From contig NZ_RJLC01000014.1 in the NCBI RefSeq assembly GCF_003999375.1, positions 267,193 through 307,192 of the forward strand: a stretch of DNA of 40,000 bases. The letters run 5' to 3'. The notes below the pieces were generated by a model. It saw only the letters and a program-made list of their open reading frames with translations, made no database searches and was not told the DNA's origin. Below are positions 18,189-32,722 of this stretch, piece by piece. Position 1 is the first letter of the stretch; each line of letters begins with the position of its first letter. The position numbers and the translations under genes are program-made. Source of the stretch: Pseudidiomarina mangrovi (GTDB taxonomy: Bacteria; Pseudomonadota; Gammaproteobacteria; Enterobacterales; Alteromonadaceae).

Positions 18189-18202
18189 ACCAATCATAGC
18201 CT

Positions 18203-18620: not shown

Positions 18621-18651
18621 GACAGTGTCTCAATAATCAAGGTCTCTTACA

Positions 18652-19035
18652 ATGAAAGAATCTCTCCTGAGCTTTGGTGGTATCGGAAGCGGTGTGGCAG
18701 CGGTAGCGGCTGCGACTCCATGCTGTTTTCCGGTGCTTGCTTCCGTTGCCAGCATCGTCGGTTTATCAGCTTTACTGCCTTACTCCGAGTACATTGCTTA
18801 CATCGTGCAAATATTCGGTTTGCTGGCAGTTGTTGGTGCTTATCTGTCATTTCGCAAACATGGCAAGCATGGGCCATTAGCCTTAACCGTATTGTGCTTT
18901 AGCGCATTGTTGGTTGTTTATAACATTTTTCTACTAGGATGGCTGCTTTACTCTGCGCTGGTTGGGCTGGTAGTAGCTGCCATTTGGAACACTTTGGAAG
19001 CCAAGAGGTGTAATCAATGCATAACACAAGCATAG
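18652..19035 (+). CDS. MerC-family membrane transporter-like protein, cassette 6 gene 2
   Basis: 4 TM helices. ATPCCFPVLASVASIVGLSAL parallels MerC GCAACFPALASFGAAIGLGFL (paired Cys in TM1). C-terminal CNQC. Confidence 0.7.
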   Translation: MKESLLSFGGIGSGVAAVAAATPCCFPVLASVASIVGLSALLPYSEYIAYIVQIFGLLAVVGAYLSFRKHGKHGPLALTVLCFSALLVVYNIFLLGWLLYSALVGLVVAAIWNTLEAKRCNQCITQA

Positions 19036-19232
19036 TGCTTCAATCGGAAATCACTTGCCCGCACTGTGGTTATCAAAAAACTGAAACCATGCCAACTGAC
19101 GCATGCCAATATTTCTATGACTGCGAGTTCTGCAAAAGGGTCCTAGAACCAAACGCCGGAGATTGCTGTGTTTTTTGTAGCTTTGGTTCGATTAAATGTC
19201 CTCCAATACAGGAAGGCAAGTGTTGCGAGTAA
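19017..19232 (+). CDS. GDCCVxC-motif small cysteine-rich protein, cassette 6 gene 3
   Basis: 71 aa with CPHC, CxxxxxCxxC and the GDCCVFC motif; ends KCCE. Overlaps the merC-like 3' end (alternative GTG start at 19035). Confidence 0.7.
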   Translation: MHNTSIVLQSEITCPHCGYQKTETMPTDACQYFYDCEFCKRVLEPNAGDCCVFCSFGSIKCPPIQEGKCCE

Positions 19233-19236
19233 TGGC

Positions 19237-19327
19237 ATTTAACAATCAAATTTTATCGCCAGCAAAAAGCGCTGGCTGCGACGTCAACCCGCTGCGCGGC
19301 TTTCCGCGCTAAATTTGGGCGTTAGCA
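19237..19327 (+). repeat. attC site 6 (91 bp)
   Basis: ATTTAAC ... GTTAGCA. The central ~77 bp looks identical to attC 1 (CAAATTTTATCGCCAGCAAAAAGCGCTGGCTGCGACGTCAACCCGCTGCGCGGCTTTCCGCGCTAAATTTGGGCGTTA). Confidence 0.85.
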
Positions 19328-19382
19328 GGCACTTCTTTCTAGCTATCTTGCCAAATGAGTAAAAAAGGAATAATTTATACTC

Positions 19383-19646
19383 ATGCACATTTTCGAGTTT
19401 GATAACGATAAGAGCCAAGCGAATCTAGAGAAGCATGGAATCAGTTTTCATGACGCGCAGGCCTTATGGGATGACCAGGATCTTCTTGAGGTTCAAGCAA
19501 AGACGGTCGATGAACCACGCTACCTCGTTATTGGTCTTATTGGTAGCAAACACTGGTCTGCTGTTATCACTTACCGAGGGGAGAAAATTCGTCTCATCTC
19601 GGTAAGGCGCTCGCGTAAGAGAGAGGTAGAGTTGTATGAAAGCTAA
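19383..19646 (+). CDS. brnT: BrnT-family (DUF497) type II toxin, cassette 7
   Basis: 87 aa; FEFDNDKSQANLEKHGISFHDAQ ... RLISVRRSRKREVELY is typical of BrnT. Overlaps the downstream brnA by 11 nt. Confidence 0.8.
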   Translation: MHIFEFDNDKSQANLEKHGISFHDAQALWDDQDLLEVQAKTVDEPRYLVIGLIGSKHWSAVITYRGEKIRLISVRRSRKREVELYES

Positions 19647-19905
19647 AGATTTTGACACGAAGTTTGATGAAGGTGCAGATGACATCATTGATGATCTGGA
19701 TGTCAAGAGCGCACGGCGGGTAAACCAGGAAGCGAAACGTATTAACGTAGACTTTCCTGCTTGGGTAGTTGAGTCACTTGATCGCGAAGCTGCTCGAATT
19801 GGCGTGACTCGGCAGTCGATTATTAAAGTTTGGCTTGTAGAGCGTTTACGGGCTGAAGCTGCTAACAAACCGCTGAAAGATGATGCCGCAAGCGGCGCAC
19901 GTTAG
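19636..19905 (+). CDS. brnA: BrnA-family antitoxin (CopG/RHH-like C-terminus), cassette 7
   Basis: 89 aa; INVDFPAWVVESLDREAARIGVTRQSIIKVWLVERL is a BrnA-type DNA-binding region. The tail is encoded within attC 7. Confidence 0.8.
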   Translation: MKAKDFDTKFDEGADDIIDDLDVKSARRVNQEAKRINVDFPAWVVESLDREAARIGVTRQSIIKVWLVERLRAEAANKPLKDDAASGAR

Positions 19906-19918
19906 CGGAGCGTTATGT
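19860..19918 (+). repeat. attC site 7 (59 bp)
   Basis: TGCTAAC ... GTTATGT, overlapping the brnA 3' end. Confidence 0.75.
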
Positions 19919-19927
19919 GGTGATGCA

Positions 19928-20212
19928 ATGAATCGTCGCTACGATGTATTTGATTTCGTTGTGATGGTCGGCTTCGTGCTGATCGTCGTGGCACTTGGAC
20001 TGTTTTTTGTATTGCAGGCAGCCGATACCTTTGAGGTTTTGGTTACCTTGGGGCTGTGGGTGATTTTCTCTTTTTTCATAACAGCACTCGTGCATGGCGT
20101 CGCTCGGGGGATCCCAAGGACCGAAGTGAAGGTGCCCAAAGGGTTTGCTTTGCTCGCTTTCAGTATCAGTGGAGCATTGTTTCTATCTGCCTGGGTCATT
20201 CGTGGCACATAA
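19928..20212 (+). CDS. hypothetical small membrane protein, cassette 8
   Basis: 3 TM helices. ATG 19928 is the first in-frame start inside the cassette; the track start at 19880 lies in the previous cassette. Confidence 0.6.
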   Translation: MNRRYDVFDFVVMVGFVLIVVALGLFFVLQAADTFEVLVTLGLWVIFSFFITALVHGVARGIPRTEVKVPKGFALLAFSISGALFLSAWVIRGT

Positions 20213-20305
20213 CCAGGCGCTCAAATGCGTTACGGCCACGAAAGGCGTGGCCTCCACCGGACAGCCACTGCTTCGCAGAGTCTGCCGTTTAGCATAGCGT
20301 TATGC
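20207..20305 (+). repeat. attC site 8 (99 bp)
   Basis: ACATAAC ... GTTATGC; the stop TAA of the upstream ORF lies in the inverse core. Confidence 0.7.
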
Positions 20306-20361
20306 CGGTTGAACAATTACCGTCAGCCTTAGAAACAACAACAGTTAAAAAGGAAAAGTAA

Positions 20362-20763
20362 ATGTCAGTATTTATTAATTTTCGACTGCTCATGATTGCT
20401 GGCTTAAGTTTCATTCTTTCGGCATGCGTTAATTTGCCCGGGCATCGCCAAACAATAGATGAAGATAATTTCTATTTACATATCACTGCCCCTTCTAAGG
20501 CTATAAAAGAAGAAATTCGTTTTAACGCAGAAGAAACAGAACTATTATTTTTACCCGAAAATGCTCAGATCGAGTTAGTTGTTGCAGATGATATCGGAAA
20601 ACATCAGCTCACGATAAAAGAACACCAAGGTTCTATTGTTTATCACTACAGGTTAAATGGACGTAAGACGACATTTGGAGACAAAGAAAAAGAGTGGTTC
20701 GCATCACAAGTCCCTTTAATCATTGAAAAATCTAAATATCGAGATGGTCCGAGTCAGGCATAA
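20362..20763 (+). CDS. hypothetical lipoprotein, cassette 9
   Basis: Signal peptide with lipobox ILSAC; AAAGGAAAAG Shine-Dalgarno. Confidence 0.65.
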   Translation: MSVFINFRLLMIAGLSFILSACVNLPGHRQTIDEDNFYLHITAPSKAIKEEIRFNAEETELLFLPENAQIELVVADDIGKHQLTIKEHQGSIVYHYRLNGRKTTFGDKEKEWFASQVPLIIEKSKYRDGPSQA

Positions 20764-20822
20764 CAAACGCCAGCACAACGCGCCTTTGGCGCTCGACTCG
20801 CAACAAGTTGCTCGCGTTATGC
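20758..20822 (+). repeat. attC site 9 (65 bp)
   Basis: GCATAAC ... GTTATGC (exact reverse complements). Confidence 0.85.
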
Positions 20823-20847
20823 ATGATGCTAACCACATGGAGTTTTT

Positions 20848-21507
20848 ATGAAATTATTGGTTTTTTTGGGCACCGTGCGTGAAAGCACTCCTCCGACACC
20901 AGCCCGACTGGGTGTTCGTGTAGCGAAAGCAGTTCTTGAATGCCTGAAAAGTCGATGTAAAGGCTATGAAATAGAGCTTATTGACGCTAAAGATTACCCA
21001 CTAGAGGCTGTATTCAAGCCGCACTTCGCGTATCCCAAAAGCAAGGCCCCTTCACAGCTCGTCGAGCTGGCTGAAAAGATTGAAAGTGCCGATGGATACA
21101 TTATGGTCAGCCCCGAATACAATCACTCAATGAGTCCGGCGCTTGCCAATCTTTTGAATCATTTTGGCAGCTCTTTATTTTCCTATAAGCCAAGTGCCAT
21201 CGTTACATACTCGGCAGGCCAATGGGGCGGGATGCGTGCAGCAATTGGAATGCGTACATTTCTTTCAGAGCTGGGCTGCCTGCCGGTCTCTTCGATGATA
21301 CATGTTCCCAAAGCGCAAGAAGTCTTTGCCGCCGATGGATCAATGCAGGCCGGGGAAGACAAGGACGCTTGGTTCGATTATTTCATACGAACATTCAACC
21401 AATTGATTTGGTGGGCCCAGGCGGCACATGGGTATCGAGTACAAGTTGACCCGCATAAGCTGGTAAAAGATTTCAAGAAGAATCCCTCTGAGCGAAACGC
21501 GCCTTAA
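20848..21507 (+). CDS. NAD(P)H-dependent FMN reductase-family flavoprotein, cassette 10
   Basis: Flavodoxin-like fold signature MKLLVFLGTVRE ... IMVSPEYNHSMSPALANLLNHF. Confidence 0.8.
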   Translation: MKLLVFLGTVRESTPPTPARLGVRVAKAVLECLKSRCKGYEIELIDAKDYPLEAVFKPHFAYPKSKAPSQLVELAEKIESADGYIMVSPEYNHSMSPALANLLNHFGSSLFSYKPSAIVTYSAGQWGGMRAAIGMRTFLSELGCLPVSSMIHVPKAQEVFAADGSMQAGEDKDAWFDYFIRTFNQLIWWAQAAHGYRVQVDPHKLVKDFKKNPSERNAP

Positions 21508-21518
21508 GAGAGGGAGTT

Positions 21519-21596
21519 GCATAACAATCGGCTGCACAGCGACCGACTTTCCGCCGCTTAGCGGCTCCAAACCGGCGCGTGAGCCGGGCGTTAGGT
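21519..21596 (+). repeat. attC site 10 (78 bp)
   Basis: GCATAAC ... GTTAGGT. Confidence 0.8.
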
Positions 21597-21602
21597 GATC
21601 TC

Positions 21603-22091
21603 GTGGCATTTCCCGAAACCAACATCGAATTACAACTACCATATAGAAATCATCTAAAGGTAGGTGATGTTTTTAGGCTCAAATATCCTGCCGAACGGTA
21701 CTTTCTCGGGCAAGTTTCGAGTTTAAATGCAAAGGCAGGAGGTTTCGATGATTGTATCCTGATTAATGTTTTCGCATTCGAACACTCCTCGCCAAGGGAT
21801 ATTAGTAGCCTGCCTTCTCTCGAATTACTAATTGCACCTCTTTATATAAATCGACTCGGCTTTTCTAGAGGATATATGCCTGTTATTGGTAATACTTCAG
21901 TCATGGAAACTTCATCGGAATATTGCTATTTTGATGTTTTATACAAGAAATATTTAGATTCAAAAGGGAACGAAATCTCAGATCCTAAAGGCTTGGTAGG
22001 TCCTTGGGGCTTAAGTAATTATTTGGTCATGGACGATCTAATCAGTGAAAAACTTGGTTTACCAATCAAAGGTGAGTCGTATGCCACCTAA
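21603..22091 (+). CDS. hypothetical protein, possibly Imm26/HocA-like immunity protein, cassette 11
   Basis: ORF open from 21579, but that start lies inside attC 10; GTG 21603 is the first in-cassette start. The pattern KVGDVFRLKYPAERYFLGQV...ILINVFAF recalls polymorphic-toxin immunity families from memory only. Confidence 0.5.
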   Translation: MAFPETNIELQLPYRNHLKVGDVFRLKYPAERYFLGQVSSLNAKAGGFDDCILINVFAFEHSSPRDISSLPSLELLIAPLYINRLGFSRGYMPVIGNTSVMETSSEYCYFDVLYKKYLDSKGNEISDPKGLVGPWGLSNYLVMDDLISEKLGLPIKGESYAT

Positions 22092-22157
22092 CAAGGCGCT
22101 GCTACGGAAATTTTACTCGCTAGCGCTCCTAAATTTCCGCACAGTGCAGCGTTAAGG
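22086..22157 (+). repeat. attC site 11 (72 bp)
   Basis: ACCTAAC ... GTTAAGG; GGAAATTT / AAATTTCC inner stem. Confidence 0.8.
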
Positions 22158-22172
22158 TTACAAGGAAAGCAA

Positions 22173-22487
22173 GTGAAAAAGTTTAGATACGTTTGTTTAT
22201 TATTTATTTTTAGCTTTGTCGGCTGTAGTGAAAAACCAGCTGATATCATTACTTGTGCTGGTGCAGTTTCTGAAGGAAGTGTTTGGGTTTCTATTTCAAG
22301 TGATAACCAAGTAACTATTGGTAGCTCACAATTTTCTGAGAGTTTGCTTCGTTCAAAACATCAAGTGGTTAAGCAGTCTTGTGATTCTGTCATAGTTATA
22401 ATTCAAGCTGATAAATATGCTAAAAATAAAGTAGTTTATGACACAATCCAAAAAATAAAATCATTGGGCTATCAAGTGTCGCAGTAA
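22173..22487 (+). CDS. hypothetical lipoprotein, cassette 12
   Basis: Lipobox FVGC. The C-terminal VIVIIQADKYAKNKVVYDTIQKIKSLGY resembles the ExbD/TolR periplasmic-domain pattern (weak). Confidence 0.6.
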   Translation: MKKFRYVCLLFIFSFVGCSEKPADIITCAGAVSEGSVWVSISSDNQVTIGSSQFSESLLRSKHQVVKQSCDSVIVIIQADKYAKNKVVYDTIQKIKSLGYQVSQ

Positions 22488-22587
22488 CCCTAACAAACCA
22501 AGTAAACGGGACAAATACGCGCAGGCTCCCGTCACTTCGTTCCGTATTATAGCCTGCGTGAAATTGCCCCTTCTTGGGGCGTTGGGT
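22488..22587 (+). repeat. attC site 12 (100 bp)
   Basis: CCCTAAC ... GTTGGGT; AAC..CCAAG / CTTGG..GTT pairing. Confidence 0.75.
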
Positions 22588-22596
22588 GGACACACC

Positions 22597-22902
22597 ATGG
22601 ATCGTGAAACTGTGAATAGTATTGAAGTACTCGATACCGGAGAGCTTTTTCTAGGCCTTGAAGGCAGGGGCAAACCGATGTATCAGCATGTCTACAGAGA
22701 AGCGGCTGGGGTCTATTGGGATGAAACCAGGAGCGGCTTTAAATCCACTCCTATGAAGGACTGGAGTTACTCGCAGTGGTACAAGCAAATTGTGGCGATT
22801 GTCCGCTATATAGGAGTGGAGCTAGCTCTTGCCGATGATGTCACTTGGTCTGGCGTATCAGAAGAAGAAAAAGCGGAAATTGAGCGTGTCAAAGCCATCT
22901 AA
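22597..22902 (+). CDS. hypothetical protein, cassette 13
   Basis: 101 aa from the first in-cassette ATG; stop TAA in the inverse core. No family recognised. Confidence 0.6.
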   Translation: MDRETVNSIEVLDTGELFLGLEGRGKPMYQHVYREAAGVYWDETRSGFKSTPMKDWSYSQWYKQIVAIVRYIGVELALADDVTWSGVSEEEKAEIERVKAI

Positions 22903-22974
22903 CCAAGCCATTAAGTTCACTCCCTACGGTCGCCCGACGCTCGCAAGCTTGCGCCTCTGCTGGCGGCGTTACAA
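22897..22974 (+). repeat. attC site 13 (78 bp)
   Basis: ATCTAAC ... GTTACAA; same family as attC 5 and 14. Confidence 0.8.
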
Positions 22975-22983
22975 GGCAAGCGA

Positions 22984-23463
22984 GTGATGAGTTACCTTCA
23001 CGTTACAATCAAAACGAAAAGCTCGGATGGCTGGCTTTGTATCTTCAAAGATTTGTCGGCATCTGACCTTAAACGAAGCCTGGTTAAGCCCTATCGGCTC
23101 GGAAAACCAATCTTTTACGATGGCAATATACTTTTTCCAAGTGAAATCACGCACGTGAAGATCACAGAAACAGAAAGCCCGCATGAAGAAGAATTAGAAG
23201 TCGTGCAAGAAGAAAGTTATAGAGATGTCCAAGAATTCAATCGCACAAGCTCAAGCGTCGTTTTGGTAAGTGCGGGCTATGGGTATAGTGACTATGAAAT
23301 CAATGAGTGTGGCAAAGACGTAACCAGCTCATACATAACCAGTGGGCCCGGAGTGGGCACCCCATTCACGGTGGTCGCTGAGTTTATTAGGCATCCCTGG
23401 GTGGTGCGCGTCGTTGGCGGCTTGGTGTTTGTAGCCGTGGCTGCATACTTGGGGCTTAAGTAA
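22984..23463 (+). CDS. hypothetical protein with soluble N-terminal domain and single C-terminal TM anchor, cassette 14
   Basis: 159 aa; acidic linker (EEELEVVQEE); C-terminal VVRVVGGLVFVAVAAYLGL helix. No family recognised. Confidence 0.6.
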   Translation: MMSYLHVTIKTKSSDGWLCIFKDLSASDLKRSLVKPYRLGKPIFYDGNILFPSEITHVKITETESPHEEELEVVQEESYRDVQEFNRTSSSVVLVSAGYGYSDYEINECGKDVTSSYITSGPGVGTPFTVVAEFIRHPWVVRVVGGLVFVAVAAYLGLK

Positions 23464-23469
23464 AATGCC

Positions 23470-23547
23470 TTGTAACAAGGCCATTAAATTCGCTCCCTAC
23501 GGTCGCCGGACGCTCGTTCCTCGCGCCGTTTATGGCGGGCGTTAGCT
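23470..23547 (+). repeat. attC site 14 (78 bp)
   Basis: TTGTAAC ... GTTAGCT. Confidence 0.8.
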
Positions 23548-23610
23548 GGGATTGCCTTACCCGTAAAGTGATACTATAGTGTCACTTGAAATTTAGAACA
23601 GGGTGAACCC

Positions 23611-23868
23611 ATGAAAGTTGAGCTAGTTACGAACCTCAAGCGCCAAGCTACAAAGATTCTGGCAGATCTGCACTTGTCGAAAGAGCCCGTATTGATTACG
23701 GAGCATGGCCAGCCATCTGCATACCTTGTTGATGTGCAAGATTATGAATTCATGCAGCGTCGGCTTGAGCTGCTTGAGGGGCTCTCTCGGGGAGAGCGTG
23801 CTGTACTTGAGGGAAGAACGTATAGCCAAAGTGGGGCCAGAGAGAAACTGAGTAAATGGCTGAAGTAG
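23611..23868 (+). CDS. Phd/YefM-family antitoxin, cassette 15
   Basis: 85 aa; NLKRQATKILADLHLSKEPVLITEHGQPSAYLVDVQDYE is a typical Phd/YefM N-domain. 13-nt overlap with the toxin gene. Imperfect palindrome GTGATACTATAGTGTCAC upstream. Confidence 0.85.
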   Translation: MKVELVTNLKRQATKILADLHLSKEPVLITEHGQPSAYLVDVQDYEFMQRRLELLEGLSRGERAVLEGRTYSQSGAREKLSKWLK

Positions 23869-24158
23869 TCTGGACAGAGTCAGCCCTCCAAGAACTTGAT
23901 GCTATTGCTGAGTATATTGCTTTGGACAATCCTGCTGCCGCAAGCGATCTCGTTAAGGAAGTTTTCGGTAAGACAGAGCGTTTGGAAAATTTCCCCAAAT
24001 CGGGGCGGATTCCTCCAGAGCTCCCGGATTCGGTATACAGGGAGGTAGTGGTTCCACCGTGTCGCATTTTTTATCGTGAGGATGAGCAGCGGGTTTTCGT
24101 CCTCTATGTCATGCGAGAGGAGCGGCAACTTCGTGCGTTCATGCTTGGAAACAGCTAA
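23856..24158 (+). CDS. RelE/ParE-superfamily toxin (ParE-like), cassette 15
   Basis: 100 aa; W-x3-A-x2-L-x2-I-x2-YI N-terminus and RIFYREDEQRVFVLYVMREER C-terminal pattern. Confidence 0.8.
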   Translation: MAEVVWTESALQELDAIAEYIALDNPAAASDLVKEVFGKTERLENFPKSGRIPPELPDSVYREVVVPPCRIFYREDEQRVFVLYVMREERQLRAFMLGNS

Positions 24159-24230
24159 CAATCCGCGTCATTCGGGGTCTTCGACCCTTGCGACGCTCAC
24201 AATTTCGCGCGCATGCGCGGGGCGTTATGT
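24153..24230 (+). repeat. attC site 15 (78 bp)
   Basis: AGCTAAC ... GTTATGT; near-copy of attC 2 (CCGCGTCATTCGGGG...CGCGCGCATGCGCGGGGCGTTAT). Confidence 0.85.
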
Positions 24231-24626
24231 TTCCGGTAGCGCCGAGATCAAACCAAGATGGTCAACGAACGGAATGAAGTCTCGATCAGTAAATAGTAGC
24301 GGCATTTGTCTTTCGATGCAGAAAGTCGCAATAATGACGTCAGTGGTTTTACGGATGGTGATTCCTTTTTTACGGAGTGCACGATAATTTTCAGCACATT
24401 TTTCAGGCATACCTTCGCCAAACAACTCGAGCCTGCCCAAGGTCATCAGTGTCTGCTTGGTCAGGCTATATTCGCTGTCGTTCCGGATGCCTTGAAGAAT
24501 TTCTAGGAAAATCAGATCACCCATGGCGACGGTACCCGCTACAATTCCTGCATCCAGGGCATCCGTATGCTGGCTCAGAACTCCGTTAAGGTAGTCGATC
24601 CAGACACTGGTATCGACCAGAATCAC
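24225..24626 (-). CDS. vapC: PIN-domain toxin VapC, cassette 16 (inverted relative to the array)
   Basis: MILVDTSVWIDYL PIN N-terminus with acidic residues. 4-bp overlap with vapB. Its stop codon is the TTA of the attC 15 core GTTATGT. Confidence 0.9.
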   Translation of the reverse strand: MILVDTSVWIDYLNGVLSQHTDALDAGIVAGTVAMGDLIFLEILQGIRNDSEYSLTKQTLMTLGRLELFGEGMPEKCAENYRALRKKGITIRKTTDVIIATFCIERQMPLLFTDRDFIPFVDHLGLISALPET

Positions 24627-24817
24627 TTGCCGCCTCGCATCTCTTCCAGGTCACCTTCCCATTTGACTCGGCCACGCAGCTTGCGAATTTCCTGTTGCTG
24701 GCTTCGTAAGACAAGCAGTTTAAGTCCTTGTTCTACAGCTTCTTTTTTAGTGCTGCACCCGGATGATTTGAGGGCCGCCTCCATCAGGTTGTCGTCTATT
24801 ACTATGTTGGTTCTCAT
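24623..24817 (-). CDS. vapB: VapB-family antitoxin, cassette 16
   Basis: 64 aa; MRTNIVIDDNLMEAALK is typical of VapB-type antitoxins and lies upstream of vapC. Confidence 0.85.
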   Translation of the reverse strand: MRTNIVIDDNLMEAALKSSGCSTKKEAVEQGLKLLVLRSQQQEIRKLRGRVKWEGDLEEMRGGK

Positions 24818-24877
24818 AAATCACCTAGCCATGTGTATGAATGGGATATATGTACACACTCTAGCATGGGTTAAAAA

Positions 24878-24967
24878 ACATAACAATCCGCAGCAATCGA
24901 TCCCTTTGGTCGCTCGGACAGCCAAAACGCTGCGCTTATTTGGCGGCCTTTGCGCGGGGCGTTAGCA
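24878..24967 (+). repeat. attC site 16 (90 bp)
   Basis: ACATAAC ... GTTAGCA. Confidence 0.8.
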
Positions 24968-25022
24968 GCCACTTCTTTCTAGCTATCTTGCCAAATGAGG
25001 AAAAAGGGAATAATTTATACTC

Positions 25023-25247
25023 ATGCACATTGTCGAGTTTGATAACGATAAGAGCCAAGCGAATCTAGAGAAGCATGGAATCAGTTTTCGTGACGCGCAG
25101 GCCTTATGGGATGAACCACGCTACCTCGTTATTGGTCTTATTGGTAGCAAACACTGGTCTACTGTTATCACTTACCGAGGGAAGAAAATTCGTCTCATCT
25201 CGGTACGACGCTCGCGTAAGAGAGAGGTAGAGTTGTATGAAAGCTAA
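25023..25247 (+). CDS. brnT: BrnT-family toxin paralogue with a 13-codon in-frame internal deletion, cassette 17
   Basis: 74 aa; about 97% nt identity to 19383-19646 except for loss of the 39 bp encoding DQDLLEVQAKTVD (junction 25114/25115). Confidence 0.75.
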   Translation: MHIVEFDNDKSQANLEKHGISFRDAQALWDEPRYLVIGLIGSKHWSTVITYRGKKIRLISVRRSRKREVELYES

Positions 25248-25506
25248 AGACTTTGACACGAAGTTTGATGAAGGCGCAGATGACATCATTGATGATCTGG
25301 ATGTTAAGAGCGCACGGCGGGTAAACCAGGAAGCGAAACGTATTAACGTAGACTTTCCTGCTTGGGTAGTTGAGTCACTTGATCGCGAAGCTGCTCGAAT
25401 TGGTGTTACTCGACAATCCATCATTAAAGTTTGGCTGGTGGAGCGTTTGCGAGCTGAAGCTGCCAACAAGCAGCTCAAAAGTGACACCGCAAGCGGCGCG
25501 CATTAG
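25237..25506 (+). CDS. brnA: BrnA-family antitoxin paralogue, cassette 17
   Basis: 89 aa; the first 78 residues are identical to the 19636-19905 product. Confidence 0.8.
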   Translation: MKAKDFDTKFDEGADDIIDDLDVKSARRVNQEAKRINVDFPAWVVESLDREAARIGVTRQSIIKVWLVERLRAEAANKQLKSDTASGAH

Positions 25507-25519
25507 CGGAGTGTTAGTG
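25461..25519 (+). repeat. attC site 17 (59 bp), last recognisable attC
   Basis: TGCCAAC ... GTTAGTG; diverged homologue of attC 7. Confidence 0.7.
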
Positions 25520-25556
25520 TTTAATAAACGACCACTCATCGTCACTCTTCGCCACT

Positions 25557-25648
25557 CAAAGCTGCACACCTAGTGCTTGCATGTCCGATAACTATGCCCT
25601 ACTTTCAAGTACATATTTTAAACAAGCGAAGTGTTATCAGGCGCAGTC
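25557..25648 (+). other. second, integrase-less attI-like region
   Basis: Hand alignment to 15661-15753 gives 75/93 ungapped matches. It includes the TTGCAT-17-TAYTTT element and GTGTTATCAGGCG (GTTATCA at 25633-25639). Confidence 0.7.
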
Positions 25649-25716
25649 TGGCAGCTAAAGGCAGCACATAAAGTCGAACACACGTAACCGACAATTTCAA
25701 CGATAGGGAGAGGGCT

Positions 25717-26502
25717 GTGAACAACGCATCGAAACCACTGAGTGAGTCGGTTTTACGCCGTCTTACTAATACCGCCGTCACCATGTTTCTCGGCCAAGCA
25801 GCGAACTACGAGGCAGCCGCTCGACCCGGTTTGCAGTTAGCCTTGTGCAACGAGGCGGTTGCTGACATGAATATGTTGATTGTTGGGGCTGGCGCTGACT
25901 CGGATAACTTGCAGAGCATGTTGAAGTCATGTCTGGATCGGCAGCTGCCGTTTCTGGCCATCATCTTCCCTGAGGCCGACCAGGCGCACGATGAAATTTT
26001 ATCGGATATGGGCTTAGTCTATGCGGTGGATTTCCCATTTATGGTGCGTGATGACATGCCGCTCGAGCCATCCGGCAATCCTGACGTTGATGTTGTTTGC
26101 GCGTCTGGCGCTGCCGATGCCGATGCCAGCGCAGATGTGATGGTTTCAGCCTATAGCATGCCCAAAGACAGCGTGCTTCGAGCGTTGCCTGCATCGTTGT
26201 TCGAAGCGACAGGAGTCGATGCTTTCGTCGCTCGTAGCAATGGCGACACCGTTGGAACCGTTACCTTAACCTATCACGGCGATACCTGCGGCATCTGGGC
26301 GATGGGCACAGATGCGTCGCGCCAGCGTGGGGGCATCGGTCTTAGACTGCTGTCGACAGCCATGGCGCAAGCTCGCCAGAACGGAGCGCGGCGTTTTTTC
26401 CTTGGTGCAACGCCCGCGGGTTACCGTCTTTACGAGAAACTTGGTTTCCAGACTGTTTGTACGGCCCGCGTCTGGGTATCCGGCGAAAGCCACCAGGTCT
26501 AG
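25717..26502 (+). CDS. GNAT-family N-acetyltransferase (C-terminal GNAT domain)
   Basis: RQRGGIGLRLLSTAMAQARQNGARRFFLGATPAGYRLYEKLGF matches the acetyl-CoA-binding Q/R-x-x-G-x-G/A motif. GTG start. Confidence 0.7.
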   Translation: MNNASKPLSESVLRRLTNTAVTMFLGQAANYEAAARPGLQLALCNEAVADMNMLIVGAGADSDNLQSMLKSCLDRQLPFLAIIFPEADQAHDEILSDMGLVYAVDFPFMVRDDMPLEPSGNPDVDVVCASGAADADASADVMVSAYSMPKDSVLRALPASLFEATGVDAFVARSNGDTVGTVTLTYHGDTCGIWAMGTDASRQRGGIGLRLLSTAMAQARQNGARRFFLGATPAGYRLYEKLGFQTVCTARVWVSGESHQV

Positions 26503-26548
26503 CTGAGCGTTCACAGGCCATTATGCTGCTTAAATCGAGGCCAGTGTA

Positions 26549-27241
26549 TTGATCGGGCTTATACTTATTGCTATTTCATGGATTCTTTTTCGACTACAGG
26601 GACGGTCGCTTTCGGCGTTGGGTTTCAACAAACCCTCGCAGCGTCTGGTTGAGTTTACCGCGGGGCTTATGCTTGCAGGCCTGTTTGCCGCTGCGCAGTT
26701 CATTTTAATTTCACATTTTTCCGAGTTTCATTGGGTGCTGAATCCAGATTTTAGTGCGGCTATGGCATTGGAGAGCCTGCGCTGGAACGTAAACTCGGTG
26801 CTTTACGAAGAACTGGTATTCCGCGGCTACCTGCTCTACAAGGCCATTGAGTTGCTCGGAGCGAGAAAAGCCTGCTTATTATCCGCCGCAGCATTCGGGG
26901 TTTATCACTGGTTTTCCTACGGTGTTTTCGGAACTTTGGTGCCGATGGTCTATGTGTTTCTTTTAACCGGTTCTTTTGGGCTGATGCTGGCTTATTCCTT
27001 TGCCATGTCAAAGTCAGTGGTGTTGCCAATAGCACTTCACCTAGGCTGGAACATTGTGACGATATTGATATTCTCCAATGGCCCCATAGGCGCACAGCTG
27101 CTTCTGCCCAGTACAACGGAACCCATGGCGATGAGCGCCTTCCAACAGATCGTTACCAGCCTGGCAGTGCCACTTGGCTTGGTTATCTTGGTGCTGTGGC
27201 TCGTGACACAAAAGGTGCGTCGGTATGGTCAATCAGCCTGA
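26549..27241 (+). CDS. CPBP-family intramembrane glutamic endopeptidase (CAAX protease/Abi-like)
   Basis: Polytopic; motif 1 LYEELVFRGYL, then GVYHW and LHLGWN histidine motifs. Confidence 0.8.
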   Translation: MIGLILIAISWILFRLQGRSLSALGFNKPSQRLVEFTAGLMLAGLFAAAQFILISHFSEFHWVLNPDFSAAMALESLRWNVNSVLYEELVFRGYLLYKAIELLGARKACLLSAAAFGVYHWFSYGVFGTLVPMVYVFLLTGSFGLMLAYSFAMSKSVVLPIALHLGWNIVTILIFSNGPIGAQLLLPSTTEPMAMSAFQQIVTSLAVPLGLVILVLWLVTQKVRRYGQSA

Positions 27242-27315
27242 AACCACTCTAGTGCCGTTGATGTTTTGACGCTATAACGCTATAGTGACATAACGTTAAA
27301 ATTGTGAGGCTTCCA

Positions 27316-27549
27316 ATGAACGAACTATCAAAACGCTCAACGGTCTATTTCGATCCACAACTCCATGCCGCCCTTCGTCTGAAAGCCGCGCATACCCAGC
27401 GTTCACTGTCTGACATTGTCAACGATGCTGTGCGCGCTGCGCTCGCCGAAGACCAACAAGACCTTGCCGCATTCAATGAACGAATCGCCGAACCGACTAT
27501 GAGTTATGAAGCGTTGCTTGATGATTTAAAAGCGCATGGCAAGCTATAG
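27316..27549 (+). CDS. ribbon-helix-helix (CopG/ParD-like) antitoxin
   Basis: STVYFDPQLHAALRLKAAHTQRSLSDIVNDAVRAAL is an RHH fold pattern. 14-nt overlap with the toxin gene. GAGG Shine-Dalgarno before ATG 27316. Confidence 0.75.
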   Translation: MNELSKRSTVYFDPQLHAALRLKAAHTQRSLSDIVNDAVRAALAEDQQDLAAFNERIAEPTMSYEALLDDLKAHGKL

Positions 27550-27799
27550 TCTGGTCGTTAAGAAGTCGGTTGCCAAAGACTTAGAAGGTATTCCCAAAAA
27601 GGACATTCTGCGTATTCTTGCTTGTTTGCAGGGGTTAGCCGATAACCCGCGCCCTGCCGGTTGTGAAAAGCTTTCAGGCCAAGAGCGCTACCGAATTAGA
27701 CAAGGCGTTTACCGAGTTATCTATGAGATTACTGATCGGCAACTGATTGTCACCGTGGTGAAAATAGTTCATCGTAGTCAGGTGTATCGCAAACCTTAA
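27536..27799 (+). CDS. RelE/ParE-family toxin
   Basis: 87 aa; YRIRQGVYRVIYEITDRQLIVTVVKIVHR C-terminal signature. Confidence 0.8.
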   Translation: MASYSLVVKKSVAKDLEGIPKKDILRILACLQGLADNPRPAGCEKLSGQERYRIRQGVYRVIYEITDRQLIVTVVKIVHRSQVYRKP

Positions 27800-27828
27800 T
27801 TGTTATTACCTCAACCGGAGTGTGTTCA

Positions 27829-28206
27829 ATGTTTAGTCATATCATGATCGGTGCTAACAGCATCGACGAATCGAAAAAGTTTTATGATGCCGTGTTAGGC
27901 GCGCTTGGCCATAAGCCGGGCGTGTTAGATGACAAGGGGCGTTGTTTTTATTTTACCGACACCGGCGTGTTTGCGCTGACCAAGCCTATTGATGGCAAGC
28001 CGGCTAGCTGTGGTAATGGTAGCACCGTGGGTTTCGCGGCAAAAAGTACCGAAGCCATTGATGCATGGCATGCTGCTGGTCTACAAGCGGGCGGCACCGA
28101 CTGCGAAGATCCGCCAGGCTGGCGCGAAGGCCCAACTATGAAGCTCTACTTGGCCTACTTACGCGACCCTGCCGGCAACAAGATCTGCGCCCTGCTGCGT
28201 GGCTAA
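27829..28206 (+). CDS. VOC (glyoxalase/bleomycin-resistance/dioxygenase) family protein
   Basis: MFSHIMIGANSIDESKKFYDAVLGALG N-terminus and YLAYLRDPAGNKI C-terminus are typical of VOC proteins. Confidence 0.8.
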   Translation: MFSHIMIGANSIDESKKFYDAVLGALGHKPGVLDDKGRCFYFTDTGVFALTKPIDGKPASCGNGSTVGFAAKSTEAIDAWHAAGLQAGGTDCEDPPGWREGPTMKLYLAYLRDPAGNKICALLRG

Positions 28207-28594
28207 CCGACAAGCGGCGCTGCAATGCGCCGCGCTATTCTTCGCGGTTGCGGCAACAGCGTCGTTGTCGGCGTGCACCACGGGGCGGTTGGAATACCTG
28301 ACGCCTGAGGGTGAACGTAAGTATGCGTGCGCTACGGAGTACACCTGGCAACCCAGTGTCGATAAGTATGCCGTGGAATATGTGCTTGCGCATTGTGCCA
28401 AACAGGCGCAAGCGCAGGGGAATACGGTGGTTGATACGCGCTTGCTGACGCTTGATTTGTCATTGCCTAGGCCTCCTGAAGGCCGGCAATGGACACACGA
28501 ACTGGCCAAGCAACAGCATCAGTCCGGCCAGCTAACAGATCAGCAATACGGCTATATCATCGCGTATTTAGACCTTGGTCTGGATAGTGACTAA
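28199..28594 (+). CDS. hypothetical lipoprotein
   Basis: Signal peptide with lipobox LSAC. GTG start overlaps the upstream stop by 8 nt. Confidence 0.55.
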   Translation: MANRQAALQCAALFFAVAATASLSACTTGRLEYLTPEGERKYACATEYTWQPSVDKYAVEYVLAHCAKQAQAQGNTVVDTRLLTLDLSLPRPPEGRQWTHELAKQQHQSGQLTDQQYGYIIAYLDLGLDSD

Positions 28595-29213
28595 AATACA
28601 GGAGTCTATTGGTTTGTATCGAATCGCTTTGTCTTTCCTGCTCATTCCGCTGCTCGCAGGTTGCGTTTCCAAGCAAGACTTAGGTGGTTTGGCAACGGTA
28701 TCGGCACTGATCGTCGCCGTGCCTTTGGTGCCGGTAGCCGAGGCTTACCATGTTATCAATGATACCGAGGGTAAGGCCGCAGAGCAGCAACAACAATGGC
28801 GAGCTAGCTTTGACCCTGTGTACCAACAGCGAATTACCATCATCGATAACCGTGATCCGCGTGCCGATGCCGAGCGCAAGTTTGCCGCCAATACCCTCGG
28901 CTTTTTTCCGATAGAACGCGACAGTAAGTTCTTAATTGGCATGAATTGGGGTAAGAATGAGGTTGATGGCGTAGCCAATCAGCAAATCATCGATAGTGAC
29001 GAGGAGTTGACGACTTTGCAGCAACTATTTGCCGATGACCCGACTCACCAACAAGTTGCTGGTCACCGCTACAATAGCCCTGTTTACGACTGCTTTGTCG
29101 CAAAAGCGTTCACCTATCGAAAGGTCTATAACCAGCGACTCTCTGAGCTGAGCGGCTTGTATTCGGTGAGCTTAAGCAACCAACAACGAGATAACCCATG
29201 TCAGACTCCATGA
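28575..29213 (+). CDS. hypothetical lipoprotein
   Basis: Lipobox LLAGC. Start uncertain (an internal TTG/ATT-region start is possible). Overlaps both neighbours. Confidence 0.55.
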   Translation: MVWIVTKIQESIGLYRIALSFLLIPLLAGCVSKQDLGGLATVSALIVAVPLVPVAEAYHVINDTEGKAAEQQQQWRASFDPVYQQRITIIDNRDPRADAERKFAANTLGFFPIERDSKFLIGMNWGKNEVDGVANQQIIDSDEELTTLQQLFADDPTHQQVAGHRYNSPVYDCFVAKAFTYRKVYNQRLSELSGLYSVSLSNQQRDNPCQTP

Positions 29214-29578
29214 TACTGAAGGGTATTGGACAAATTGCTATTACCGTCAGTGATATTGACCAAGCGTTGGCTTTTTATAGCGACTTACTGGGCTTGCCAC
29301 TGCTGTTCCGCGCTGGGCCTAACCTAGCATTTTTGCAGGCGGATAGCGTTCGCATTATGCTCACTACGCCACAAGGTGCTGGAGCTATTGGTGCTAACTC
29401 GGTACTGTACTTTAAAGTGACCGATATCAATGCAGCGCACAGCGAATTTGTGCGCCGAGGAGCGGTCAACGAGCGTTCACCGCAATTAGCAGCAAAGATG
29501 CCCGACCATGACCTCTGGCTTGGCTTTTTACGTGATCCGGATGGCAACCTAGTTGGCTTGATGGAAGAGCGGAGCTAA
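29198..29578 (+). CDS. VOC (glyoxalase) family protein
   Basis: IGQIAITVSDIDQALAFYSDLLGL ... FLRDPDGNLVGLME is a VOC fold signature. Confidence 0.8.
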   Translation: MSDSMILKGIGQIAITVSDIDQALAFYSDLLGLPLLFRAGPNLAFLQADSVRIMLTTPQGAGAIGANSVLYFKVTDINAAHSEFVRRGAVNERSPQLAAKMPDHDLWLGFLRDPDGNLVGLMEERS

Positions 29579-29639
29579 TTCGATGTAAGCGGGAACAAAA
29601 TACTATAGTGTCACTATTTGATGCCAGTAGGTGAGAGCC

Positions 29640-29789
29640 ATGAAAGTTGAACTTGTTACGAACCTTAAACGCCAAGCAACTAAAATCTTGGCCGAGTTGC
29701 ATGCCTCAAAAGAGCCGGTATTGATTACCGAACCCGGCCTCGCCGAACTTGACGCTGTCGCAGCATACATTGCGCGCATTAATGCTTAA
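29640..29789 (+). pseudogene. decayed phd'-'parE fusion remnant (homologue of cassette 15)
   Basis: The 49-codon ORF MKVELVTNLKRQATKILAELHASKEPVLITE|PGLAELDAVAAYIARINA joins the antitoxin N-terminus (compare 23611-) to the toxin segment LQELDAIAEYIA (compare 23880-). The upstream TACTATAGTGTCAC box is shared with 23573-23586. Confidence 0.7.
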
Positions 29790-29840
29790 TGAGGCGTCAC
29801 CTAACCACCTAGGTTGAGCCAACCATAAGGAATCTTTACC

Positions 29841-30185
29841 ATGAAAAAATTAGTGACTGCCCTATTTGCGATGCTGTTTGTCTCGCCTGTTTTGGCTCAA
29901 TCTGTATTTCAAGTTGCTAGCCATGTATTCCACCACGGTGAATTGGTCGCAAGCCCAGTGATGTTGATTGAAGCCAATAAAGAAGCGTCCATGAGCATTG
30001 GTGACGACTTCTATTATCAACTGACGGTATCACCGAATGACGATAATACCGTGAGTATTGTGACTCGAGTTACTGTCGCCGGTGAGACTTTTGAGCCATC
30101 ACTCATTGTTGCCTATGACCGCGAAGCGATTATTGAAATTGGTGCGCAGAAATTGAGCATGGTCATTTCTAAAGCTAGCCACTAA
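29841..30185 (+). CDS. secreted hypothetical protein
   Basis: 114 aa; signal peptide ALFAMLFVSPVLA/QS. Confidence 0.6.
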   Translation: MKKLVTALFAMLFVSPVLAQSVFQVASHVFHHGELVASPVMLIEANKEASMSIGDDFYYQLTVSPNDDNTVSIVTRVTVAGETFEPSLIVAYDREAIIEIGAQKLSMVISKASH

Positions 30186-30189
30186 CAGC

Positions 30190-30471
30190 ATGAAAGCTGT
30201 AAGACTGGCCGTTAAGATTATTCCGGGGGCCTCGCAAGAGAAAGTTGTGGGTATGCTCGGCGATGCGCTCAAGATCCGTGTGCGGGCGCAGCCTGAACGG
30301 GGAAAGGCCAATGCTGCCGTGATTGCGACATTGGCCAAATTTTTGCAATTGCCAGAAACGGCAGTGACTATTTGCGCGGGCCACACCTCTGCCAGTAAAG
30401 TGGTTGAGATACAAGGGCTTTCGCCCGTTGAGTTACAACATAAACTGACGACATTCGGGAAGTCATCGTAA
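30190..30471 (+). CDS. DUF167 (YggU-like) family protein
   Basis: VKIIPGASQEKVVG...LKIRVRAQPERGKANAAVIATLAKFL is the typical DUF167 pattern. Confidence 0.75.
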   Translation: MKAVRLAVKIIPGASQEKVVGMLGDALKIRVRAQPERGKANAAVIATLAKFLQLPETAVTICAGHTSASKVVEIQGLSPVELQHKLTTFGKSS

Positions 30472-30485
30472 TAAGAGGAAACCAC

Positions 30486-30692
30486 ATGCCATACGTCAAT
30501 GTGCAAATAACCAAAGGCGCAACCCGTCAACAAAAAGCTGAGTTGGTCAAAGATATAACCGACTCATTGGTTCGGGTGCTGGGCAAAAAGCCGGAGTATA
30601 CGCACGTAGTGATTCAAGAGATTGACGATGAAAATTGGGGCTTCTCGGGATTGCTTACCGATGAATGGAAGCGACAACAAAAAAATGGTTAG
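30486..30692 (+). CDS. 4-oxalocrotonate tautomerase-family protein
   Basis: MPYVNVQITKGATRQQKAELVKDITDSLVRVLGK has the catalytic Pro1 signature. Confidence 0.8.
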   Translation: MPYVNVQITKGATRQQKAELVKDITDSLVRVLGKKPEYTHVVIQEIDDENWGFSGLLTDEWKRQQKNG

Positions 30693-31110
30693 CTTTCAAC
30701 CGTGCTCTGATTTCGTTGCGGCGGCCGCGTTAACGTTAAGCAACATGCAAAGCTATTATCATCACTATGGCGTTGATTGGGATGCGCGGCAAATTGAAGC
30801 CATGACCCGTGACTTGGTGAACCTTGATATTCTGGCCGATGGCCAAGTTGTTGGCGTGATGCGCCTGTCATTCGATGAAACTAGCTGTATGGTGCGCGAT
30901 TTACAGGTAGACCCGCGCCAGCAAAATAAGGGCATCGGCGCACAGGCTCTTAGCGAAGCGAAACGTTTAGCACAGGCACAGAACCTGCAACGCCTGCAAC
31001 TGCGGGTATTCACCATCAGCCCAGCGGCGCGGCTGTATCAGCGTTTTGGCTTTACCCTTAGCCATCGCGATGAGCGCTTCGATTACATGGAGCTGTCACT
31101 GACCGTTTGA
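30685..31110 (+). CDS. GNAT-family N-acetyltransferase
   Basis: RQQNKGIGAQALSEAKRLAQ...ARLYQRFGF. ATG 30685 overlaps the tautomerase stop (ATGGTTAG). Confidence 0.75.
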   Translation: MVSFQPCSDFVAAAALTLSNMQSYYHHYGVDWDARQIEAMTRDLVNLDILADGQVVGVMRLSFDETSCMVRDLQVDPRQQNKGIGAQALSEAKRLAQAQNLQRLQLRVFTISPAARLYQRFGFTLSHRDERFDYMELSLTV

Positions 31111-31189
31111 CGTTGCCATTTTTTCGTCGCAATGAGGTGATGATTGCCTATAATTAGCGTTGCGCCACAACTCATGGAGTAGCAAGCTG

Positions 31190-31498
31190 ATGTCGGAATT
31201 TCAACATTTTACAGTATTAGCCGAAGGCATGGTGGCTGACCTTGATAGCGATTTTCAATGCCCCGATGGCCCGGCTTTTATGACTATGAAGGCCTGGGCG
31301 ACGGATGCCGACGAAGCGGCCGATATGCTGATACAGATAGGTAAGCATCTGGGTTTTCATGCCATTGGCGAGTTGCAGATTTTCATCACTGATTCGGAAC
31401 AACCACCCGAGCCCCAGCCGTACGGCTATGGAATTAACTTTACGCCCTTTGATGATGACGCCATGGATGACGATGAGGACAGTTCTGAGCTCCATTGA
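31190..31498 (+). CDS. hypothetical acidic protein
   Basis: 102 aa from ATG 31190; highly acidic C-terminus (FDDDAMDDDEDSSE). Confidence 0.5.
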   Translation: MSEFQHFTVLAEGMVADLDSDFQCPDGPAFMTMKAWATDADEAADMLIQIGKHLGFHAIGELQIFITDSEQPPEPQPYGYGINFTPFDDDAMDDDEDSSELH

Positions 31499-31540
31499 TC
31501 AGATAAACAGCGCTGGCAAAACATACATGGAGTTATATAA

Positions 31541-32074
31541 ATGAAGAAAATAGTACTGTTCGTTGTGCTGTTACTAACTGGCTGTGCCAATATTCCATTG
31601 GCCACCATGCTGGAAATGCGCTCGTTTGATCAAAATAGTTTTGTGCAGCTAAATCCAGAGGTGATTCGCACCAAGATCCAACTTGATGAGCCGGTCAAGA
31701 TCGATCTCGATAGCGCTGAATTATCGTTGGCCATCAACAGTTCTAAAGGGGTGCGGCTATTTCAATTTCCGTTGGAGCTAGTGAGTGAGCAGAACATTGC
31801 GCCAGAAGAGGGGTTTATCTTTACTACGCCGGGCAAGACTGAATACACGCTGAAGCTTTCTGCTGAGGCTATTCGTAGCTTTGAAGAAACCCAGCACGTG
31901 GTGGCGAGCGATGCCGGCAGCGAATTCGATATCACCGTACGTACTGGCTTTGACGATTTACCTGACCATATTGATGAAATTCGCCTCTCTATTTTTCTTT
32001 TGCTCAACGAACAGCGCGGCTACATCACCTTGTTTGAGGACGCTGAGCTCGCAATTAATCGCGATGGAGAGTAA
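31541..32074 (+). CDS. hypothetical lipoprotein
   Basis: Lipobox LLTGC. Confidence 0.65.
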   Translation: MKKIVLFVVLLLTGCANIPLATMLEMRSFDQNSFVQLNPEVIRTKIQLDEPVKIDLDSAELSLAINSSKGVRLFQFPLELVSEQNIAPEEGFIFTTPGKTEYTLKLSAEAIRSFEETQHVVASDAGSEFDITVRTGFDDLPDHIDEIRLSIFLLLNEQRGYITLFEDAELAINRDGE

Positions 32075-32180
32075 CACCGCATGACGGTGACCGAAGCGTT
32101 GGCAGTTACTGAAGCCGCCGGGCCCATTGCCTTCACCTCCGCTAAATAATCTGGCAAAAGCTGATTGTTTGACCTAATAT

Positions 32181-32206
32181 AAGACCATTATTTTGGTCTT
32201 TTTTTT
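32181..32206 (+). terminator. rho-independent terminator
   Basis: Stem AAGACCA (32181-32187) / TGGTCTT (32194-32200), 6-nt loop, followed by a T-run to 32206. Confidence 0.7.
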
Positions 32207-32235
32207 GGCTTATATTTAGGTGTGAAGAGGTGGTT

Positions 32236-32487
32236 ATGCAGCGTGTTTTAGCGAGCTTGTCAGTCAGCGTTTCAGAATTGAAGAAAAATCCTTCGGCACT
32301 CGTGGAGCAGTCCAACGGAGCGCCTATTGCAGTGCTAAATCATAACAAGCCAGCCGCTTATTTGATCCCGGCTGCTACTTATGAGGCGCTGATGGAGCGA
32401 CTTGAAGACTATGAACTCGGTCAGCTTGTTGAGCAGCGTCGTGATGAAAAATCACAGGCCATAGCGGTATCGGTCGATGAGTTATGA
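32236..32487 (+). CDS. Phd/YefM-StbD-family antitoxin
   Basis: SVSELKKNPSALVEQSNGAPIAVLNHNKPAAYLIPAATYEALMERLED. 11-nt overlap with the toxin gene. Confidence 0.85.
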   Translation: MQRVLASLSVSVSELKKNPSALVEQSNGAPIAVLNHNKPAAYLIPAATYEALMERLEDYELGQLVEQRRDEKSQAIAVSVDEL

Positions 32488-32722
32488 GCTGTATTTCCTG
32501 CCAAGCGCGCTGAAGGAATGGCAAAAACTATCGCCAACTATTCAGTATCAGTTTAAAAAGAAGCTCGTTGAACGGCTTGCTAATCCGCGAATCGCAGCGC
32601 ACAAGTTAAGCGGCTACGATTCTGTGTATAAAATTAAGTTGCGTGCTGTTGGCTATCGTCTGGTTTATGAAGTAATCGACGATAAACTCCTCGTTTATGT
32701 CATTGCAGTGGCTAAGCGTTAA
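32477..32722 (+). CDS. RelE/StbE-family toxin
   Basis: 81 aa; SALKEWQKL...YKIKLRAVGYRLVYEVIDDKLLVYVIAVAKR. Confidence 0.85.
   Translation: MSYELYFLPSALKEWQKLSPTIQYQFKKKLVERLANPRIAAHKLSGYDSVYKIKLRAVGYRLVYEVIDDKLLVYVIAVAKR

Follow-up and report, generated by a model that had tools for sequence, protein, structure and literature searches.

In a 40,000-nucleotide stretch of the Pseudidiomarina mangrovi chromosome, hereafter the window, part of the segment between the integrase gene and the attI site of an integron occurs a second time past the last attC site of the cassette array. Based on sequence comparison, this second copy (copy 2) is a relic platform fragment, conserved most likely because it drives or regulates the expression of a fixed cluster of former cassettes, a reading to which we assign a probability of roughly 60%. 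An integron platform comprises the integrase IntI, an attI site and a Pc promoter facing the array (PMC8191803). Copy 2 would have kept the segment between intI and attI and lost the integrase gene as well as the attI core. It would retain a sigma-70-type equivalent of Pc (TTGCAT-17-TACTTT, 25577–25605) facing the cassettes, followed by some 45 bp of conserved sequence that is either the start of the transcript or regulatory. Located about 110 bp upstream of a GNAT acetyltransferase gene heading an 8-kb string of ex-cassettes, the putative promoter may act as a second Pc for this fixed cluster.

Integron Platform and Cassette Array

The window represents an origin-proximal part of the Pseudidiomarina chromosome, carrying mnmG-rsmG-parAB, the atp operon, glmU and glmS (42–14613, + strand). 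An intact integron integrase gene (intI, 14624–15598, − strand; TIGR02249) lies 11 bp past the glmS stop codon; its product scores 412.6 bits in a profile search with a cutoff of 265 and is 97% identical to the annotated integron integrase of P. donghaiensis. Copy 1 of the platform block lies in the intergenic region between intI and attI (15631–15753, + strand) and contains a putative Pc composed of a −35 hexamer (TTGCAT, 15681–15686), a 17-bp spacer and a −10 hexamer (TATTTT, 15704–15709; + strand). With an integrase gene adjoining it (TIGR02249, 412 bits), copy 1 is part of a complete platform. Just upstream of the intI start region, at 15608–15635 on the + strand, another promoter-like sequence (TTGATA-16-CATAAT) fits the consensus more closely, at 10 of 12 positions; it is situated outside the sequence common to the two copies.

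The attC-bearing array (15883–25513, + strand) comprises about 18 cassettes, the attC sites of which lie between 16319 and 25520, each with an R'' box of the ACATAACAA type at one end and a GCGTTAT/G R' box at the other. These sites were recovered with a tightened regex-plus-folding scan, looser versions of which were either empty or swamped by false positives in core genes. The first cassette opens with TTATGTG and has a ribosome-binding site (AGGAA) ahead of its ATG at 15907, while the final three (23541–25513) are toxin-antitoxin cassettes. The last attC (25455–25520, + strand; crossover G25513|T25514) is slightly degenerate and its predicted fold is not significant by itself; it is a paralogue of the attC at 19860–19919. 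Duplications were also seen within the array: a BrnT-type toxin-antitoxin cassette is present at 19317–19919 and, with 93–97% identity, at 24957–25520, where the second copy ends the array, and a 100-nt attC at 16307–16406 recurs at 19225–19324 (95% identity).

Downstream Gene Cluster

The first gene past copy 2 encodes a GNAT acetyltransferase of 261 amino acids (25717–26502, + strand) and opens a co-oriented, tightly packed cluster of 18 cassette-type genes (25717–33702, + strand), among which Pfam searches identified three GNATs, two glyoxalases, two ParE toxin-antitoxin pairs, a tautomerase, DUF167 and DUF6868. Regex-plus-folding scans detected no attC in 25521–33800, and none was found past the GNAT gene in the window or in the comparison loci L026 and L028. 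An 81% homologue of the GNAT gene in L031 is an ordinary cassette flanked by attC sites, at least four other cluster genes have cassette homologues in the attC arrays sampled (L011, L031, L034–36), and the cluster differs among the window, L026 and L028 by whole-gene insertions and deletions. We read the cluster as a fossil array in which the genes that survived are those whose attC sites had been lost.

Several minor features of the cluster were recorded. A truncated Phd/YefM-type antitoxin remnant at 29638–29790 is 78% identical to the start of an intact cassette gene at 23609–23710. Short motifs resembling isolated attC R'/R'' boxes (GCGTTAA or ACATAACGTTAAAAT) occur at 27285–27300, 27790–27812 and 32715–32730 of the window and at 11350–11375 and 12650–12675 of L026, at the ends of toxin-antitoxin genes. 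In L026, two copies of a 92-bp repeat ending in GCAAGCGTTAATTAC enclose an inserted GGDEF gene. Motifs and repeats alike may represent attC sites that have collapsed.

Second Copy of the Platform Block

Copy 2 (25514–25648, + strand) lacks the attI core as well as intI; its neighbours are the BrnT/antitoxin cassette on the left and the GNAT gene on the right, and no integrase gene adjoins it. An earlier, sequence-only reading of the window had described its start directly at the G|TT crossover of the last attC, its position at the distal end of the attC-bearing array and a gapless alignment at 75 of 93 positions. All of this we could confirm: copy 2 begins directly past G25513|T25514, 15661–15753 and 25557–25649 share 75 of 93 positions, and no attC is detectable by the scan past 25520. 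Likewise, the GTGTTATCAGGCG box (15735–15747 in copy 1, 25631–25643 in copy 2), located in the conserved stretch past the −10 hexamer, and the TTGCAT-17-TAYTTT element (15681–15709, 25577–25605) were found in both copies as described. In copy 2, the latter consists of a −35 hexamer (TTGCAT, 25577–25582), a 17-bp spacer and a −10 hexamer (TACTTT, 25600–25605; + strand).

The formal alignment proposed at the time yielded about 80% identity between 15631–15753 and 25523–25648 with one 3-bp gap (local alignment), and BLASTN, which detected two copies of the block in the window, gave 78.4% over 125 bp (E = 5e-24). In a repeat search, the pair appeared as a family (D4) of 111 nt with 80% identity. 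At an offset of 9896, 122 of 200 positions match, compared with 46–67 at neighbouring offsets. Between the block and the GNAT start lies a linker without GTT (25649–25716, + strand). Its last 14 bp or so (from 25703) show BLAST homology to the L031 sequence leading into the GNAT cassette gene; this end excepted, alignments of the linker to the attI core or to the GNAT-cassette leader were no better than shuffled controls. The orphan copy in L028 has longer platform homology, reaching the equivalent of 15803, which is still short of the attI core, and keeps an inverted repeat that is gone from the window copy by a deletion of about 29 bp.

Promoter-like Element and Conservation of the Block

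The duplicated segment corresponds to the intI-attI intergenic region with its promoter-like element, and the block is a constant feature of all the intI-linked platforms studied (P. donghaiensis, P. woesei, P. taiwanensis, L004, L005, L034/35 and L037). A −35 hexamer of the form TTGnnn, a spacing of exactly 17 bp and a −10 hexamer of the form TAnnnT, pointing towards the cassettes, are present in 9 of 9 copies, and the spacer between the hexamers varies, being almost wholly changed in L005, L034 and L037. Constant hexamers and spacing combined with a free spacer are the pattern expected of a real promoter. None of the four copy-2 sequences (window, L001, L026 and L028) has lost either hexamer or the 17-bp spacing. 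The hexamers are, however, weak in comparison with the consensus (TTGCAT 3/6, TACTTT 4/6), and because a consensus promoter scan called TTGCAT-17-TAYTTT in neither copy, the argument for a promoter is one of comparative conservation. The promoter-like element of copy 2 is very probably real, and the earlier suggestion of a second promoter there is plausible, with the qualification that the element is weak against the consensus.

Conservation is strongest from the −10 hexamer to about +45 (TTTCAA.TACATA.TTTAAACAA....AGTGTTATCAGGCG), and the roughly 45 bp past the −10 show still higher conservation within Pseudidiomarina. With the best-conserved stretch situated past the −10, selection could be acting on a regulator site or RNA leader instead of a promoter, and these 45 bp could represent such a site or leader. 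That selection acts not on a promoter but on a regulator binding site or a 5' leader RNA, duplicated when the platform was, is an explanation we consider unlikely; in that case, the fragment may also include a leftward Pint, now firing antisense into the last toxin-antitoxin cassette. Apart from the conservation profile, it draws on a neighbouring inverted repeat, CAAAGT..ACTTTG, that is conserved among platforms between the block and attI (15757–15782, + strand) and shows compensatory changes in copy-1 platforms. On the other hand, neither the window nor copy 2 matches an Rfam family, and the box is not conserved in the distant loci L034 and L037, while the hexamers are. By eye, no LexA (CTGT-N8-ACAG), CRP or IHF consensus site was found in the block, and the inverted repeat contains no recognised match to a LexA, CRP or IHF consensus either. 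A regulator or leader function is compatible with copy 2 being a relic promoter/regulatory region, and does not exclude the promoter reading.

The inverted repeat itself, which has the form CAAAGT..ACTTTG in Pseudidiomarina, could be an operator or leader hairpin. It was also observed in L004 (9794–9861, − strand), L005 (6589–6656, − strand), L034/L035 and L028 (2981–3048), in the variants AAAACGAGCATGCTCGTTTT (L004) and AAATGAGCATGCTC (L005 and L034), with compensatory changes on both arms; the arms in L004 read AAAACGAGC/GCTCGTTTT, compensatory relative to CAAAGT..ACTTTG.

Age of the Duplication and Selection on Copy 2

In a neighbour-joining tree of the block, the orphan copies of the window, L001, L026 and L028 form one clade, which is the sister group of the intI-linked Pseudidiomarina copies, with L004 and L005 outside. 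As the orphan copies constitute a clade of their own, the duplication is old and predates the split of the lineages carrying it, of which there are three or four only; judged from these sequences, it is inherited together with the GNAT gene. In two lineages diverged by about 18% (window and L028), copy 2 immediately precedes the same GNAT gene, the GNAT genes being 88% identical at the protein and 82% at the DNA level.

Between these two lineages, 80 of 93 positions of the orphan block are identical (86%, P <= 2e-7), and in its core, from the −10 hexamer to the end of the box, 48 of 50 (96%, P <= 1e-8). At fourfold-degenerate sites, by comparison, identity amounts to 61.5% in the GNAT gene and 50.5% in the Rce1-like gene. 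The difference between 86% and 50–62% indicates purifying selection on the orphan copy and speaks for a function where it now lies.

These values bear directly on the alternative that copy 2 is a neutral, decaying remnant of a rearrangement without present function. The loss of the attI core and, through the 29-bp deletion, of the inverted repeat would fit such decay, as would the fact that intI was inactivated repeatedly in these relatives (in L001, in L026 and in L015, the type strain of P. donghaiensis). Against it stand the excess of identity over fourfold-degenerate sites, which is even more pronounced in the 50-nt core, and the preservation of both hexamers and their spacing in each of the four copy-2 sequences; hence, neutral decay appears improbable to us.

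Position of the attI Site

Alignment of the regions upstream of intI in seven platforms (window, P. taiwanensis L011, L004, L005, L034, L035 and the Idiomarina locus L037), whose integrases are 75–100% identical to that of the window, reveals two conserved elements: the platform block and, some 125–145 bp farther from intI, the attI core. The latter, GC..GCACAnTATACAAATG|TTA, is kept in 7 of 7 platforms and in the window spans 15860–15889 (+ strand), with ACACTATACAAATG|TTATGTG at the crossover. Homology of the window to L001, L011, L015 and L026 ends exactly at 15885, after GTTA; L001, for instance, matches copy 1 up to CAAATG|TTA (15885) and then jumps to the cassette starting at 23541 in the window. 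In L034 and L035, which have an identical IntI and different first cassettes, divergence sets in immediately past the same GTTA. A conserved core at which arrays with different first cassettes split, at 15885, places the attI crossover at G15882|T15883.

The GTGTTATCAGGCG box lies about 145 bp upstream of this crossover. The sequence of the box is GATATC in both L005 and L034 and AATAAC in L037, three platforms with a conserved attI core, which argues against an IntI-binding site at the box. No cassette was inserted at the box in any array examined. As a conserved, GTT-containing sequence beside intI, the box invites misreading as the attI of this integron family, a misreading that is corrected here.

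Consequently, the interpretation of copy 2 as an orphan attI is not borne out, copy 2 being devoid of the conserved attI core. The core pattern has one match in the whole window (15868–15885), an alignment of 15804–15890 to 25640–25730 scored no better than shuffled sequence, and there is no GTT between 25640 and the GNAT start at 25717. The sequence past the box in copy 2 is homologous among the window, L026 and L028, and the stretch from block to GNAT gene is uninterrupted in the window, L001, L026 and L028. The arrays to its left consist of about 18 cassettes in the window, three in L001, a different set in L026 and others again in L028. Since the upstream arrays were turned over while the block-to-GNAT stretch stayed intact, copy 2 behaves as recombinationally inert and is probably inert for recombination, as far as can be told from these sequences.

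A functional second attI at copy 2, offering a second point of cassette insertion 10 kb into the array, is therefore very improbable. Its attraction lies in the descent of copy 2 from the platform region, in its contact with an attC crossover and in the GTT of the GTGTTATCAGG box, which resembles the R' ends of local attC sites (GCGTTAT). However, the conserved core and the observed crossover are located at 15868–15885 and not at the box, six arrays break there, the core is absent from copy 2, and the box is altered to GATATC or AATAAC in L005, L034 and L037 despite their conserved core. Moreover, none of the three lineages examined has an insertion at copy 2, even though the neighbouring arrays turned over. 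The proposal of a second IntI insertion point is consequently not supported, for want of a core, a GTT and insertions. Of the broader idea that copy 2 is a second platform deprived of its integrase, the diverged copy of the platform region, the missing adjoining intI and the start at an attC crossover hold, but its designation as an attI does not.

Occurrence in Other Genomes

The attC-copy 2-GNAT junction is present in four independent assemblies, namely L001 (Logan), L002 (ENA), L026 and L027 (ENA), and is, thus, not an assembly join; L002 is 100% identical to 24608–26558 of the window. In a scan of 185,579 species, each represented by one genome, with a degenerate pattern matching both copies, the block was found in P. 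taiwanensis, P. woesei and P. donghaiensis only, once each and adjoining intI. The other 17 of the 20 matches are the number expected by chance and do not align to the block beyond the pattern; among these non-Pseudidiomarina matches, short marginal BLAST matches to the block were confined to three archaeal contigs. A metagenome scan with a 21-base pattern returned two loci (L032 and L033), neither of them BLAST-similar to the window or the block, and a plasmid collection contained no match to the block. With the same junction in four independent assemblies and the block restricted to three Pseudidiomarina species, next to intI and with no relevant match in metagenomes or plasmids, there is next to no chance that copy 2 stems from misassembly or belongs to a repeat family scattered over the genome and unconnected with integrons, two of the outcomes that the sequence-only reading had named as refuting it; nothing was found in favour of either.

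Origin of the Second Copy

Copy 2 probably arose when IntI recombined an attC with a secondary site located just a few bases before intI begins, which would account for the exact G|TT at the left junction. In copy 1, the point corresponding to the left boundary of copy 2 is 8–25 bp ahead of the intI ATG, at a place where GTTAAGC occurs in relatives; together with the attC crossover at that boundary, this fits recombination between attC and a secondary site. In present copy 1, a GTT does not occur exactly at the aligned position, and the right boundary of copy 2, not being at a GTT either, looks like an ordinary deletion. At the left junction in L028, folding did not reveal a convincing attC (the fold was not significant), so the case for an IntI-mediated origin comes mainly from the window/L026 lineage.

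Such an event could have fused two platforms, the second intI being deleted between tandem integrons, or, alternatively, placed a module of promoter, attI and array ahead of an older platform. The inverted repeat and the attI core, along with most of the leader of the GNAT cassette, would then have disappeared in a later deletion. Over time, cassettes with a working attC would have been lost from the old array, leaving the immobilised ones behind.

As a tentative generalisation, which we regard as possible though doubtful, sedentary integrons might grow by platform stacking and keep stranded promoters for immobilised cassettes. IntI would insert or fuse a promoter-attI-array module at a secondary site just upstream of intI, and the older platform would be stranded downstream, with its promoter preserved by selection to serve cassettes immobilised through attC loss. 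If this were true, orphan platform fragments would mark a route of cassette domestication into fixed operons and would provide landmarks for fossil arrays unseen by attC-based tools.

Relation to Known Systems

Copy 1, with a TIGR02249 IntI, a putative intergenic promoter and an attI with a G|TT crossover, resembles the platform of sedentary chromosomal integrons such as the Vibrio cholerae superintegron, and the toxin-antitoxin-rich array of attC cassettes in the window is likewise of this kind. Copy 2 corresponds by homology to the promoter portion of a platform like this but, unlike a platform of the V. cholerae type, it lacks intI and the attI core, is located past the last attC and faces genes without attC. 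In a literature search, which was not exhaustive, we met no account of a platform fragment duplicated within a single array or at its end, and nothing relevant on tandem or second attI sites or on Idiomarina integrons.

Incomplete integrons have been categorised in the IntegronFinder work of Cury et al. in 2016, where CALIN reportedly denotes clusters of attC sites without an integrase and In0 an integrase without cassettes. Copy 2 is also an incomplete part of an integron; in contrast to these two categories, it is a promoter fragment of the platform and contains neither intI nor attC, and searches based on attC or intI would therefore miss it. Hence, copy 2 defines a type of integron relic that goes undetected by annotation relying on these features.

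Internal promoters of arrays are known from toxin-antitoxin cassettes and from P2 of class 1 integrons, and copy 2, being distal to Pc, could likewise express genes far from attI. Copy 2, however, is a homologue of the platform's own promoter region, not the private promoter of a cassette, and has no attC of its own as a boundary. Studies of class 1 integrons also report recombination by IntI at secondary sites (GWT/GTT). The left boundary of copy 2, exactly at an attC G|TT, is consistent with this activity; the right boundary is not a GTT.

Copy 2 also shows that selection can maintain a piece of an integron platform after both the integrase and attI are gone, in this case where a mobile array meets an attC-less block of former cassettes. 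If its role as a promoter is true, it offers an example of cassette genes becoming ordinary, stably expressed chromosomal genes. Copy 2 can be explained without a new recombination mechanism and opens no major new question.

Integrase Loss and Array Turnover in Related Lineages

Loss of the integrase is common in the Pseudidiomarina clade (L001, L026 and L015). The intI genes of L001 and L026 are truncated at the same point (window 15494–15496) and continue in similar filler sequence (CCTAAAACCGC; L001 7427–7442, L026 2830–2850), which suggests a single ancestral event that destroyed intI. In the P. donghaiensis type strain (L015), intI has an internal deletion, by which the equivalent of window 14853–15174 is gone. 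In L026, a TnsB-like transposase element (408–2850; rve and Mu-transposase C domains) is situated between glmS and a 32-amino-acid intI stub, at the attTn7 position, and has repeated end motifs (GTTACCAACTTTATT). In P. donghaiensis GCA_048267025 (L003 1–130), a sequence containing GTTACCAAC takes the place of the platform from about window 15776, where the contig ends.

L001, in which most of intI is gone, carries three cassettes only, corresponding to the last three of the window and joined straight to attI. From these cassettes onwards, window 23541–36502 is 99.87% identical to L001 7825–20786 over 13 kb, a stretch that runs through the final three toxin-antitoxin cassettes and copy 2 into the fossil array and the core genes flanking it. 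On the glmS side, identity between the two is 93.9%, and in copy 1 it is 92.6%; this difference points to a boundary of recent recombination or transfer within the array.
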